This document shows, piece by piece, positions 51,118 through 58,902 of a stretch of 64,000 nucleotides of DNA; the stretch's first letter is position 1, and the number at the start of each line of letters is the position of its first letter. The stretch is from Candidatus Eiseniibacteriota bacterium. Its GTDB lineage: Bacteria > Eisenbacteria > RBG-16-71-46. The notes below the pieces were generated by a model that saw only the letters and a program-made list of their open reading frames with translations, made no database searches and was not told the DNA's origin. The stretch is from the NCBI GenBank assembly GCA_963707915.1, contig OY970178.1, forward strand, positions 1,856,001-1,920,000. The letters are read 5' to 3'. A program made the translations under genes and the position numbers.

Positions 51118-51194
51118 TGGCAGGCCTGGAGGGATTCGAACCCCCGACACCCGGTTTTGGAGACCGGTGCTCTAGCCAGCTGAGCTACAGGCCT
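51118..51194 (-). tRNA. tRNA-Trp(CCA)
   Basis: AGGCCTG...CCGGTCTCCAAAACCGG...GTTCGAATC...CAGGCCTGCCA. Confidence 0.97.
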
Positions 51195-51260
51195 AAGTCG
51201 TATCCGGGCCGACTCGCGGCGGCCCCCATCGCCATCGCACGACCCACAGCCCGACGCGCG

Positions 51261-51410
51261 CTAGCGCGTCTCCTTGTGGGCGGTGTGCTTCCGGCAGGCC
51301 GGGCAGTACTTCTTCTGCTCGACCCGGTCCGGATGCAGGCGCTTGTTCTTCTTGGTGATGTAGTTGCGATGCTTGCAGTCGTTGCAGGCGAGGATGACCT
51401 GGTCTCTCAT
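51261..51410 (-). CDS. rpmG: 50S ribosomal protein L33 (Zn-ribbon type)
   Basis: Manual translation [49 protein letters not shown]. Confidence 0.96.
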
Positions 51411-51446
51411 GTCGTGTCCCGTCTCCGCTGCCGGACGATCGGCCCG

Positions 51447-52647
<1,201 letters not shown>

Positions 52648-53645: not shown

Positions 53646-53674
53646 AAGATAGTCAGCGCGCCCGGGACTGTCAA
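53646..53674 (-). promoter_or_regulatory. Sigma70 promoter of the tRNA cluster
   Basis: TTGACA-N17-TATCTT. Confidence 0.75.
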
Positions 53675-53723
53675 GACGCGGATGCGCGCCGCTCGCCAGG
53701 GCCCCGAAGCCCGGCCACATGCG

Positions 53724-53770
53724 AAAAGGCAGCCAAGTCGAGCGAACCTGAGTCCACTCTGTGGCTGCCT
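53724..53770 (-). terminator. Long intrinsic-terminator-like hairpin ending the putative sRNA
   Basis: AGGCAGCCA-CA-GAGUGGAC-UCAG-GUUCGCUC-GACU-UGGCUGCCU-UUU. Confidence 0.65.
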
Positions 53771-54034
53771 CTTCCCGAGAGAACAGGGGGTGACCGGGAA
53801 GAACCCCGTTGTCCTCCCGGCTTCGTTGACCGGGCGTATTTGGTTTTTTTGCAGAATGAACAGCGAACCACTACTCAACTAGACACCGACCAAGTCGAGG
53901 CTTCTCTCTCACCCCTTTCTCGTTCGGCCCCATCGTCGAGGCCAACCTGCCAACCAGGGTACGAGCCCTGCCCTGCAGCCATTACGCCGCAGGATGTTCC
54001 GGGTGATCGACTACGCTCGCTCTCCGTATCCGTG
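53724..54034 (-). ncRNA. Putative sigma54-dependent structured small RNA (about 310 nt), family unknown
   Basis: Bounded by a -24/-12 promoter and a terminator; six stem-loops, most with G.U pairs on the minus strand; no convincing ORF. Confidence 0.55.
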
Positions 54035-54044
54035 CATCGTGCAT

Positions 54045-54060
54045 TGCAGGGCGCGTGCCA
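54045..54060 (-). promoter_or_regulatory. Sigma54 (-24/-12) promoter
   Basis: TGGCAC-GCGCC-CTGCA versus consensus TGGCAC-N5-TTGCW, downstream of a sigma54 activator gene. Confidence 0.72.
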
Positions 54061-54178: not shown

Positions 54179-54270
54179 GTGTTACGTCCAGAGGTAACAC
54201 GTTCCGCGACGCATTGTCCGCCAACTCCCATGGGCGCAACCACTTCGCGACTGTTACCCGCGAGGTGACA
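54179..54270. promoter_or_regulatory. Two related palindromes, probable enhancer (UAS) sites
   Basis: GTGTTAC-N8-GTAACAC (54179-54200) and TGTTAC-N7-GTGACA (54252-54270), about 155 and 225 bp upstream of the predicted +1. Confidence 0.55.
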
Positions 54271-54349: not shown

Positions 54350-56774
54350 TCAGGGCAGCGTGATGCTCAGGCGCTTGAGTCTCGCGTAGAGCGTCTTGCG
54401 GCTGACGCCCAGCAATTCGGCCACGCGACTCTTGTTCCGGCCCGCCCGCTGGTAGGCGGCCATGATGGCGGCCCGCTCCTGCTCCGCGGTGTCGTGGGCC
54501 GGGCGGACTGGCGAGGACTGCAGCAGGAAGGGCAACAGCGCGCCCGCGTCCAGGCGCTCGCTGCCGACGTGGAGCGCGCCCACCCGCTTCATCACGTTCT
54601 CCAGCTCGCGGACGTTGCCCGGCCAGGGGTGCGAGAGCAGCACCGCCTCGGCGTCGGCGCTCAGTCGCGGGCCCTGGAAACCGCCGTAGAAGGCCAGGAA
54701 GTGCCGGGCCAGCGGGACGATGTCGTCCGAGCCGCTCGCGCAGCGGCGGCACGCGGATCTCGATCTCGTTCAGGCGGAACAACAGGTCGCGCCGGAACAA
54801 CCGCTCCCCCTCGCTGCCCCGCAGTTCCCGGTTGGTGGAGGCGATGATGCGCACCTCCGCCCGACGCACCCGGGTCTCGCCCAGCCGCATGTACTCGCCG
54901 CTCTCGAGGAAGCGCAGCAGGGTGACCTGCACGTCCTGCGGCAGGTCGCCGACCTCGTCCAGGCACAGCGTGCCGCCGTCGGCCGCCTCGACCAGCCCGG
55001 CCGCGTCGGCGTGCGCGCCCGTGAAGGCGCCCTTGCGGTGGCCGAAGAGCTGCGAGAGGGCCAGTTCGGCGCGCAACGCACCGCAGTTGACCGCCAGGAA
55101 CGGCCGGTCCGCCCGCGCGGAGAGCACGTGGATGGTCCGCGCGATGAGCTCCTTGCCGGTGCCGGTCTCTCCCGTGATCAGCACCGACAGGTCGGTGCCC
55201 GCCGCGCGCCGCGCCATGGCCTCGACCCGCTGCATGGCGTGGGAATAGGCGACCAGCGTGGGCGCCCGGTGCTTGCGACCCGGCGGGACCACGCGGGCGG
55301 CGGTCGCCGCGGCCCCGGCGGCGCCCAGCAGGCGCTGCAGCTCGAGATCGGTGCGTTCGAGCCACTCCTGCGCCGAGAGCTCGGCGAACAGCGCGCCGGC
55401 ACGGTAGAGGTGGTGCCGACCCTCGCGCGGTTCGCTCACCACCCGGCCCAGCTCGAACAGCGTGCGGGCCAGCTCGTAGCGCTCGCGCAGCCCGGTCAGC
55501 ATGCGCACCGTGTCGGTCCAGCCGCGCAGGGCGTCCTCGTGCCGGCCCCGGGCCCAGGCGATCGCCGCTGCCGCGCGGTGCCCCAGCGCCAGCTCGAGCC
55601 GGTCCTCGATGCGTTCCGCCAGCCGCAGGGCCCGATCGCAGGCGAGCTGCGCCTCGTCCAGCCGGCCCAGGCGGGTCAGCGCATCGGCCCGGCGCCGTTC
55701 CAGCTCGACCACCAGGTCGCCCTCGGGGGCCAGGACGGCGGCCAGCAGGCTGGCCTGGTCGTAGCGCGCCAGCGCCTCGGCGTGCCGGTCGCGGTCGGCG
55801 TCCAGCTCGCCGAGGAACTCGATCGCCAGGACCTCCTCGCGGGGCGCGCCGTGCTCCCGGGCGCGCTTCAGGGCGTCGGCGAACAGGGCCTCGGCGTCGG
55901 CGAAGCGGCGCTGCAGGCGGGCGATGTTGCCGCGCGCGATCCGCACCGTCGCCAGGCGCAGCGGGTTGGCGAGCTGCTCGTAGACCTGCTCGGCCTGGAC
56001 GTAGCACTCCTCGGCCTGCTCCCATTCCCCGCTCTTCTGGTGGACGATGCCCAGGTTGAGGAGGGCATCGGCCGTCGAGGGGAACCGGCCCAGGCGCCGG
56101 AACACGTCGAGCGCGGTGCGCAGGCAGGCCACCGCCGCGTCCCACTCGCACAGGTTCTTGAGGATCAGGCCCAGGTCGCTGCGGGCGCGGGCGGAGCGCC
56201 AGTCGTCGCCGAGGCGCCGGTACAGCCCGAGCGCCTGCTCGTAGAAGTCCCGGGCCTCGTGGAGGTCCCCCTCGCGGTACGCGATCCGGCCCAGGTGGTG
56301 GAGCGCGCGCGCCGCGAGGTCGTGATCGCCCGAGGCGTCCGCCAGGGCGAGGGCCGCGGAGGAGTCCACGCGGGCGTCGTCGAGACGGCCCAGCCGGAAG
56401 AGCGCCTCGGCGCACTGCAGGTGAATCCCGGCCCGGCCCGGGACGGCGTCGACGCCCCCCTCGGTCGCCAGCAGCTCGCGACAGTGCGCCAGCGCGCCCA
56501 GCGTGTCGCCCTGGGCCAGCCTGCACGCCACCGCCCGGCTCTCGAGCGCCACCCGGCGGGCCGGCGAGAGCGTCCGCGCTGCAGGCAGCGCGAGCAGGCG
56601 CTCGATCGTCTCCAGCGCGGGCACGGAACTGTCCGCCTGCAGGTACAGGTCGGCCAGCATCTCGAGGTCGGCCACCGCGTCCTGCGGGGTGCCCCCGACG
56701 GGCAACCCCGATCCGCAGGTCAGCGCAAGCTTCCCTTCCAGCTCGGCAATCCGATTCCGGTCATCGATCGGCAC
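54350..56774 (-). CDS. TPR-repeat sigma54-dependent enhancer-binding protein (TPR-AAA+-Fis HTH); +1 frameshift at about 54729, probably an error
   Basis: About 480 aa of TPR-like repeats, GETGTGKE, GAFTGA, LDEVGDL, RRDLLFRL, then in the shifted frame WPGNVRELEN and NKSRVAELLGVSRKTLY. Confidence 0.9.
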
Positions 56775-56813
56775 GCCGGTACTCCGGTCAATTCGGCCCT
56801 AGCCAGCTGGGTG

Positions 56814-57170
56814 TCAGAAACGCAGGAAGATGGCCCTGAGGCCCAGCAGGAACAGTTGTACAGGGTTCGTCGCGACGCTGATGGGAGCCATCTCCTCACC
56901 CACGAGGACAGCCCCTCTCTGCGGCACCACCTGGCTCGTGCTGTTGCGAACCACGGTCAGCTTGCCGGCCTTGCCGTCTCCGGGCCCCATCGGCACATCC
57001 GGGTCACCGAGTGACGGTAGGGGATCGCCCCCGTCCGGCGAAATGACGAAGCTGCCGGAGCCGCTGTCCGCGAAGGACGTCGAGGGCGCGGCGAAGGAGA
57101 GGAAGCAGGTGGTGAGGAGACACAGCGTCAGGACGAACGCCCACGAGCGATTCATCGCGAATCGGAACAT
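56814..57170 (-). CDS. Small exported protein, candidate signalling propeptide (118 aa)
   Basis: RBS GGAAAGG; signal peptide ending SFA; Ser/Gly/Asp/Pro-rich core with GDPLP and GDPDVP; hydrophobic C-terminus. Confidence 0.7.
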
Positions 57171-57323
57171 GAGAACCTTTCCTGTGTCATGAAACGATGA
57201 ACCAAAGCGCCCGGCCTGCTATGACTTCTCCCGCCAGAGGGGTCGCCGTCACGGAGTGAGGTCGGGATACGGGGTGACCCCTCTCTCCGCAGACGTCGTT
57301 TGCGGGCAGCCCGGTACGGAAGG

Positions 57324-57353
57324 ATTGTAGTCCCGTTGCTCCCGGCGCGGCAA
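57324..57353 (-). promoter_or_regulatory. Sigma70 promoter of the small protein-activator operon
   Basis: TTGCCG-N18-TACAAT. Confidence 0.55.
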
Positions 57354-57480
57354 GGGGATGTTGCGCCCGAACGTCGGGCCCGGGGCGCCCCGGGGAGCGC
57401 CCACCGCCCGGCTCCCGGCCGGCGCCGGCACGGCGCGGCCCCGGGTAGGGAGATCCCCGGGGCCGCCGTGCGGGCCGCGA

Positions 57481-58902
57481 CTAGCGCCGCTTGAGCCTGG
57501 GCGGCTGTCCCTTCACGTCTTCGAGCACCACGCCGAATTCGTCCAGGAGCCGCTGCCGCAGGGCGTCCGCCCGGGCCCAGTCGCGGTCCTTGCGGGCCTG
57601 CTCGCGCTCCCCGGCCAGCGCCAGGACCTCGGTTGGCCAGGACTCCCCGGCGGGCTTTCTCCAGAAGAGGCCGAGCACGCCGCCCAGGCCGAGCAGGACC
57701 CGGCCCGCCGCGGGGCCCTCGGGCGAGCCCTCGTCCAGCGCCCGGTTCACCTCGCGCGACAGGTCGAACAGGTGCCCGATGGCCTTGGCGCTGTTGAAGT
57801 CGTCCTCCATCGCCTCGTGGAACGAGCCGCTCGCACTCCGCCACCGCCCGGCCCAGGTCCCCGGTCGGGGCCGTCCCGGCGGGCAGGTCCCAGGCCCGCG
57901 CCCGGGCGAGCACGCCGATCAGGCGCTGGTGGGCCACCGCGGCCTCGGCCAGGCGCTCCTCGTTGAACTCGAGCGGGCTGCGGTAGTGGGTCGAGAGCAG
58001 GTAGTAGCGCACCACCTCGGGGTCCGTGCGGCCGGCGATCTCGTCCACGTAGAACAGGCTGCCGGTCCCGGTGCTCTTCGAGATCTTGTCGCCGCCGGTC
58101 GTCACCATGCCGTTCTCGGTCCAGAAGTTCGCGAACGGCTTGCCGGTGGCGGCCTCGCTCTGGGCGATCTCGTTCTCGTGGTGCGGGAAGATCAGGTCCT
58201 GCCCGCCGCCGTGGATGTCGAGGGTCTCGCCCAGGTACTTCATGCTCATGGCCGAGCACTCGATGTGCCAGCCGGGCCGGCCGGGCCCCCAGGGGCTCTC
58301 CCAGGCCGGCTCGCCCGGCTTGGCGCCCTTCCACAGCGCGAAGTCGAGCGGGTCGCGCTTCTCCTCGCCCACGTTGGCCTTGTCGCCGGCCTTCTCGCGC
58401 TCGCTCGCGCGCACCTCGTCCAGGCTGCGGCCCGAGAGCTTCCCGTAGTCGGCCTTCGAGCGCACGTCGAAGTAGACGTCGCCGCCCGCCGCGTAGGCGT
58501 GGCCCTTCTCGATCAGGCGGCGCGATCAGTTCGAACATCTCGGCGATGTGCTGGGTGGCGCGCGGGTAGTGCGTGGCCGGCAGGATGTTGTGCAGCGCCG
58601 CGCCCTCGAGGTAGGCGGCGATGTTGCGCTCGCTGACCGAGGTGTAGTCCACGCCCTCGCTGCGTCGCCCGGTCGATGATCTTGTCGTCCACGTCGGTGA
58701 AGTTGTAGACGTAGGTCACGTCGTAACCGAGGTGCAGCAGGTAGCGGCGCATCAGGTCGCCCGAGAGCGAGGCGCGGATGTGCCCGACGTGGGGCTTGTC
58801 CTGCACCGTCATGCCGCACACGTACATGCCCACGCGGCCGGGGTGGACGGGGACGAACTCGCGCTTCTCGCGCGTCAGCGTGTCGTAGATGCGCAGCGTC
58901 AC
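57481..58902 (-). CDS. cysS: Cysteine--tRNA ligase (three apparent +1 frameshifts)
   Basis: [51 protein letters not shown] spread across frames. Confidence 0.93.

Follow-up and report, generated by a model that had tools for sequence, protein, structure and literature searches.

Targets of small RNAs (sRNAs) are hard to find in bacteria without Hfq or ProQ. CrcZ of Pseudomonas, an sRNA similar in length to the RNA analyzed here, lies behind its sigma54 activator CbrB, and the CsrB/Rsm RNAs carry many GGA motifs in hairpin loops. Among other described circuits, LuxO/Qrr1-5 couples a sigma54 activator to sRNAs that have distinct pairing regions for their targets and repress translation of their own activator as negative feedback, with qrr1 adjoining luxO (PMC3262071, PMC8043402). 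The Qrr RNAs are bound by a second RNA, the LysR-driven QrrX (PMC9732341). In Myxococcus, which lacks hfq, the activator gene pxrR is followed in tandem by an enhancer, a sigma54 promoter, and the sRNA Pxr; Pxr follows a two-component pair and has three stem-loops, and pxrR is reported not to figure among its predicted targets (PMC5684412). OrzO and IstR-1 repress by upstream pairing, in the OrzO-zorO case over an 18-nt region (PMC3919570). Finally, the RRNPP(A) systems of Firmicutes place a small exported-type precursor gene beside a TPR regulator (PMC10075063, PMC9765709).

Each ingredient of the locus described here has a precedent, and what is gained is the wiring rather than a new class. 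The window, that is, the entire 64,000-nt stretch of contig OY970178.1 (Candidatus Eiseniibacteriota) that was analyzed, carries a non-coding RNA gene with a sigma54 promoter (Table 1), likely driven by the adjacent TPR activator, and comparative sequence analysis suggests that its RNA probably acts as a negative-feedback brake through Hfq-independent base pairing. The general layout of a sigma54-dependent sRNA beside its activator is present in full: a promoter at fixed distance, an enhancer, a linked GAFTGA activator, and rpoN. As at qrr1, the RNA gene adjoins that of the activator, and repression of the activator's own translation, distinct pairing regions for each target, and binding by a second RNA are predicted here as well. 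Unlike Qrr, the RNA has no sequence or Rfam similarity to that family, ranges from 310 to 540 nt among its members, and occurs in an order without Hfq, and its partner RNA is sigma54-driven by a paralogous unit, not LysR-driven as is QrrX. The activator has a TPR input domain in place of the phosphorylated receiver of LuxO; a LuxO model scores it at 171 bits against a cut-off of 800, and its N-terminus is TPR, with no LuxO-type receiver. Complementarity to the ribosome-binding region of the RNA's own activator, a feature of Qrr, was seen only in the bacterial family to which the window belongs (the main family) and not in the second family that carries the RNA. A repeat of the LuxO-Qrr-QrrX logic with unrelated parts would constitute convergent evolution of a feedback circuit.

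The gene order is also that of PxrR/Pxr. Unlike pxrR, the activator operon carries co-varying complementary sites; the gene upstream encodes a small GDPD protein rather than a kinase-regulator pair, and the RNA had no Rfam match to Pxr. With CrcZ the RNA shares an A-rich single-stranded stretch, but CrcZ antagonizes Hfq and Crc (PMC5113210), whereas Hfq was detected in 0/102 genomes of the order (the search control was positive in 5/14), which leaves none for an RNA of the CrcZ/CrcY type to titrate. No ProQ was found in the window's own genome. CsrA is present, and GGA, the motif of CsrB/Rsm RNAs, is not enriched in this RNA (10.4 versus 10.1 in shuffled sequences), with none in a hairpin loop in 44/78 homologues. 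The predicted seed helix, at 8-13 bp, is shorter than the OrzO-zorO region, and, unlike in the targets of OrzO and IstR-1, the gene for the RNA's activator comes after that of a small protein, which has 100-120 aa and a signal-like N-terminus. Unlike the RRNPP(A) regulators, the TPR protein here is an AAA+ activator of sigma54 whose output is an RNA, and the motif of the small protein lies mid-protein.

Table 1. Positions of the RNA gene, its control elements, and its predicted pairing partners (window coordinates unless a contig is named; a dot marks elements without strand)
Feature	Position	Strand	Remarks
Non-coding RNA gene	53723..54034	-	~312 nt; +1 predicted from sigma54 promoter, 3' end from closing stem; ends inferred
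3' closing stem-loop	53723..53774	-	7/12 pairs change on both sides; 99.2% of cells paired; terminator-like or end-protecting
Long covarying hairpin	53775..53820	-	12/17 pairs change on both sides; 93.6% of cells paired
Loop of long hairpin	53792-53803	-	contains second CCCGGUC
Near-invariant 20-nt core	53821..53840	-	after A-run; halves complement leader 5' end and activator ribosome-binding region
Shine-Dalgarno-like G-rich segment	53909..53919	-	no start codon; complements UCACCCC beside leader site
Hairpin GGG-CUCGUA-CCC	53957..53968	-	complementary (13 bp in own genome) to second sigma54 RNA at G000:C1:1991228-1991239
5' seed GGAUACGG	54024..54031	-	complementary to operon leader site; ninth base A here, G in most relatives
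sigma54 (-24/-12) promoter TGGCACG-N4-CTGCA	54045..54060	-	in 77/78 loci; the sole miss is a chance coding-region match
Enhancer palindrome, TGTYAC-N-GTRACA type	54180..54199	.	about -139 from promoter
Second enhancer palindrome	54252..54270	.	about -210
TPR-AAA(sigma54 activator)-Fis HTH gene	54350..56774	-	two frames in this assembly; one frame of 800-850 codons in most relatives
Predicted target UUGACCGG	56784..56791	-	overlaps GGAG Shine-Dalgarno of activator
Small protein gene, first of activator operon	56814..57170	-	signal-peptide-like N-terminus; invariant GDPD motif
Predicted target, leader site UCACCCCGUAUCC	57265..57277	-	~103 nt before start of small gene
Predicted target ACCGGGC at leader 5' end	57309..57315	-	complementary to core
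sigma70-type promoter of peptide-activator operon	57324..57353	-	consensus match only
Sister sigma54 RNA (L274)	G000:C1, about 1991325-1991000	-	complementary segment 1991228-1991239

A first-pass annotation, made from the letters of the window alone, had proposed a structured non-coding RNA of about 310 nt on the minus strand. Folding agrees with that strand: the minus strand reaches -135.6 kcal/mol (z -3.41, with 1/100 shuffles as good), the plus strand a z of only -1.36, and all of the helices that had been named exist in the minus-strand sequence. In an alignment of 66 main-family members, 95.4% of cells pair and 20/38 pairs change on both sides, a level reached by 0/500 shuffles, while slid controls pair in 45-55% of cells. 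This signal comes from the long hairpin and the 3' stem. Ends near 54034 and 53724 had been expected, and they fit both the +1 near 54034 that we infer from the sigma54 promoter at 54060-54045 with standard spacing and the 3' stem ending at 53723. The stem described as a long terminator is present and covaries, but it is no classical U-tract terminator: it pairs its own U/C tail with GAAGA, often ends in CUCUUC, and was not called by a terminator scan.

Two finer claims held in part. The repeat of CTCGACTTGG at 53733-53742 and 53890-53899 is there, but duplications of CTCGACTTGG and of GGTTCGCT each occur in only 1/78 homologues; the conserved repeat is CCCGGTC (CCCGGUC in the RNA), found twice in 75/78. 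The suggested pairing of the Shine-Dalgarno-like segment with UCACCCCCUGUUCUC is at most an alternative fold (at least seven Watson-Crick pairs in 14/78), as UCACCCCCUGUUCUC forms the 3' arm of a covarying local hairpin. Against UCACCCC next to the leader site, the same segment makes at least seven Watson-Crick pairs in 27/61. No reading frame is conserved on the RNA strand, with each frame stopped in 65-68/78 homologues, and a start codon follows the Shine-Dalgarno-like segment in only 2/76; readings as a coding, small-protein, or dual-function RNA were rejected on these grounds. A Shine-Dalgarno-plus-ATG signal on the opposite strand was likewise rejected, given AAG at that place in the window and its genus and an A-run of varying length. 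Within the RNA, a helix between the 5' seed and the CUCGUA loop is unsupported, with no pair changing on both sides.

Within its family, the window copy is the one with the shortest 5' part, a feature that had escaped the first-pass annotation together with the sigma54 promoter, the enhancer, the adjacent activator, and the targets. It lacks ~130 nt kept by most relatives, comprising a G-loop hairpin and a CACCUCC-loop hairpin; the CACCUCC motif is found in 67/78 members. The loss is probably natural, since a few other members also lack those hairpins. In homologues such as L123 and L063, this optional domain presents a G-rich loop and an anti-Shine-Dalgarno-like CACCUCC loop, and the latter could pair with the Shine-Dalgarno of the second peptide or with the G loop.

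The family is uncatalogued, as had been surmised. Rfam 15 gave no family at gathering threshold for the RNA (the best permissive match, 19.2 bits, was far below thresholds), and six homologous loci returned tRNAs only. The genome's 6S RNA and tmRNA lie elsewhere, at C1:810963 and C1:2978832, and the RNA matched neither family. An exact 19-mer search of genome_contigs retrieved 73 stretches, most of the titled records being Candidatus Eisenbacteria. Across 206 genomes of the phylum, the 20-nt core was present in 69/88 genomes of the main family (one of them, G031, a chance match), in 9/10 of the second family (counts for which take in the unpublished genome G038), and in 0 elsewhere; both families belong to one Eisenbacteria order. 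With two mismatches permitted, the core was exact in 77/80 matches. L090 is a chance coding-region match and not a member. A covariance model run on 80 chosen genomes matched only the own genome and 0/79 others, and the core 20-mer was absent from the viral contigs searched. In one genome (G019; L050, L051), the whole peptide-activator-RNA unit occurs in two copies. In RNA libraries, contigs of relatives span the core in 7/8 runs examined, among at least 24 matching runs; the runs were chosen by this stretch and may hold DNA, and their contigs give no strand, ends, or level, such that they are a weak hint of expression. Among the top-ranked papers of full-text literature searches there was no description of this RNA, and nothing turned up on Eisenbacteria together with non-coding RNA; supplements of motif screens and of bioRxiv papers, outside the scope of these searches, could hold the motif. 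Taken together, a fold above shuffles, the lack of an Rfam match, covarying 3' stems, the absence of a conserved frame, and a promoter of its own support a stand-alone structured RNA, and this comparative evidence marks it as a genuine sigma54 RNA family, so far uncatalogued, whose predicted partners are unusually well defined.

In 75/78 loci, 27-31 nt separate the promoter from the 5' seed that follows it. An enhancer palindrome accompanies the promoter in 76/78 loci, compared with 3.2% of shuffles, and since two of only three exact palindromes in the own genome fall at this locus, the RNA looks like the main output of the activator. The activator, with GAFTGA in 74/78 loci, is upstream of the RNA in 77/77 mapped loci. 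The small GDPD protein encoded first in its operon belongs to no NCBIfam or Pfam family and matched only unnamed Eisenbacteria clusters. On the other side, the tRNA-tuf operon has its own sigma70-type promoter at 53674, as had been stated; a reading of the RNA as the leader of that operon was rejected on this ground and because at least eight loci with >3 kb downstream hold no tRNA. In homologous loci, a gene of ~500-600 nt that is absent in the window often stands between the RNA and tRNA-Thr. Within the window, tuf (51193-52647), the activator (54350-56774), and cysS (57152-58652) are each split between frames, which suggests indel errors of this assembly.

We predict that the RNA base-pairs with three sites of its own peptide-activator operon, namely one within the leader, one at the leader's 5' end, and the ribosome-binding site (RBS) of the activator. 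The leader site, the complement of the RNA 5' end, was recovered within one mismatch in 57/63 leaders in reach. Cognate seed-leader helices had at least eight Watson-Crick pairs in 54/60 cases, after three mis-started rows were dropped, compared with 6 and 10 of 653 control leaders. Covariation between seed and site was examined in 57 pairs, eight rows lacking a site having been left out. These held 491 standard cells, ten cells in which both partners had switched and formed a new Watson-Crick pair, six leader-only changes that all gave G.U, and six mismatches, of which five were at the terminal base, the window copy among them. The double changes were A3G (second family, G014, and G011), U4C (G011), and G1A (G120 and G134). 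On a quick tree they involve three positions on separate branches, with starred support forcing no more than one origin each, and the six-of-six wobble outcome has a ~9% chance under transitions alone. In two loci that have lost the 5' seed, the leader contains GACCGGGA instead, to which the loop seed is complementary. The first-pass idea of a base-pairing regulator thus finds support in intermolecular covariation. Natural compensatory changes of this kind point to the RNA's partners in a lineage that is uncultured and show exactly which mutations to test.

The leader site occupies an apical loop in many folded leaders. Blocking it left RBS accessibility almost unchanged in most leaders and opened the RBS in only 2/17 folded leaders, so this pairing provides no ready explanation for how the first gene would be repressed. 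The activator RBS reads GACCGGAG and complements CCGGUC of both the core and the loop. Here GACC precedes GGAG in 36/58 sites versus 5/680 controls, and the first 32 nt after the operon promoter make at least seven pairs with the core in 40/54 leaders (six had no promoter call) versus 13/180 control promoter windows, both counts being inflated by kinship. Because the core is invariant, these two targets rest on conservation and not covariation. The second family retains the 20-nt core with neither an RBS site nor a leader 5'-end site (0/6), and the invariance of the core is hence not fully explained. Energy by itself does not pick out these targets. Duplex energies rank the leader 358th and the activator RBS 337th of 2769 crude gene calls for the window copy; with the usual seed, the leader ranks 6th. 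Co-folding with the leader gained -13.4 kcal/mol, while the median of the controls was -8.5 and 6/60 of them did better; in several homologues the gain was no better than in controls. As for further targets of the core, 40 non-self TCGTTGACCGGR matches, sampled among 150 of a total of 264 matches, had no gene in common.

The own genome also holds a paralogous unit, with a GEPD peptide, a 1029-aa TPR activator, a sigma54 promoter, and a sister RNA without an Rfam match. The sister RNA was found in 85/88 main-family genomes and in 0/10 of the second family. Its GGGUACGAGCCC complements GGGCUCGUACCC of the RNA described here, with at least ten pairs in 43/47 genome pairs and a helix of 12-15 bp in 39/47, the longest among the predicted partners; at least 13 contiguous pairs arose in 7/5000 random windows. 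A matched extra base is present in both RNAs of G015 and G153, and in G020 the pairing includes wobbles; the three form one clade, and the matched insertion is one evolutionary event. Pairing was weak or absent in four genome pairs (G018, G034, G011, and G012), and the second family has neither the GGG-CUCGUA-CCC hairpin nor a sister-RNA match (0/10). In the minimum-energy co-fold of the two RNAs the hairpin-hairpin duplex is absent, and the sister segment is engaged in pairs of its own fold in 49/49. If two activator-driven RNAs of paralogous circuits do pair, this would represent a type of cross-talk of which we found no example in the literature searched.

In the circuit that we favor, a putatively exported GDPD protein would pass the input signal to the TPR domain, and the activator would bind both palindromes and drive the RNA. 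On the operon leader, the 5' seed would pair with the loop and the core with the 5' end, and either the core or the CCCGGUC loop would cover the activator's Shine-Dalgarno, lowering the output of peptide and activator. The GGG-CUCGUA-CCC hairpin would pair with the second sigma54 RNA, leading to mutual titration and coupling the two paralogous peptide-TPR-activator units. With several seeds acting on each message, a chaperone might be dispensable. Considerably more tentative is an extension in which each of the two units brakes its own operon by a multi-seed, Hfq-independent RNA and the RNAs neutralize each other, producing a toggle between cell-cell signaling channels, with the ~130-nt domain lost here among the modules that tune the wiring.

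A negative sign is favored because one site covers the activator's Shine-Dalgarno, because OrzO and IstR-1 repress through upstream pairing (PMC3919570), and because Qrr represses luxO (PMC3262071). The same pairing might instead have a positive effect: at the leader's loop and 5' end it would stabilize the mRNA or keep it from terminating prematurely, giving autoinduction. The first start codon and its RBS are indeed distant from two of the three operon sites, which are placed 100-145 nt upstream of that codon, and Qrr RNAs activate aphA via its 5' UTR with a separate pairing region (PMC3262071). We think this rather unlikely, given how seldom blocking the leader site opens the RBS, the normally repressive position of the third site, and the OrzO and IstR-1 precedent (PMC3919570). 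Sponging between this RNA and its sister, in either direction, is improbable as the main role with the operon sites secondary: the sister helix is the longest, has the matched insertion, and has a precedent in QrrX (PMC9732341), but the second family keeps the RNA and its leader pairing with neither the hairpin nor a sister match.

Titration or scaffolding of a protein through the A-run and the repeated CCCGGUC, in the manner of CrcZ or CsrB, would accommodate a core identical in 77/80 matches, including those of a family in which no matching core target was found, and CsrA is present. Such protein-sponge readings, one of which the first-pass annotation had entertained, are lowered by the lack of Hfq in the order, of ProQ in the own genome, and of GGA enrichment or consistent loop placement, and they leave the intermolecular covariation unexplained; we give them a small chance. 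Smaller still is the chance that the matching 9-10-mers are DNA sites, bound by a repressor at both promoters in inverted orientation while the RNA does something else. On DNA, seed and leader site are indeed inverted repeats of each other, and a promoter lies immediately upstream of each, but coordinated changes at three positions on separate branches fit RNA pairing better, as do leader-only changes that all keep G.U and the loop presentation of the site in many leader folds. Feedback by base pairing with the operon thus stays our preferred reading.

Several related elements were seen beside these. The leader of the sister RNA's own operon has a AGGUCCCC site complementary to the 5' G-rich hairpin of that RNA, behind which lie a second sigma54 promoter and then a lipoprotein-like gene; as a target of the core, this gene matched in only 7/45. 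In the first codons of the second activator (L305-L324), a conserved GCGATCCCCCCC complements the Shine-Dalgarno-like segment over 8-11 pairs in some genera, which makes the stretch a possible cross-circuit target of the RNA. A third peptide-TPR-sigma54 unit of the own genome (G000:C1, about 1093150-1088800, minus strand) is interrupted by an insertion element, and no downstream sigma54 promoter was found there. In family f11 (L254, L259, L263, and L265), a different conserved sigma54-driven structured RNA stands behind a related peptide-TPR activator pair, whose peptide has a PDETL motif; the unit has GTGACATC repeats upstream and gave no Rfam match in L254. A G-rich stretch of the f11 RNA complements a CUCCAU segment beside the Shine-Dalgarno of the peptide.
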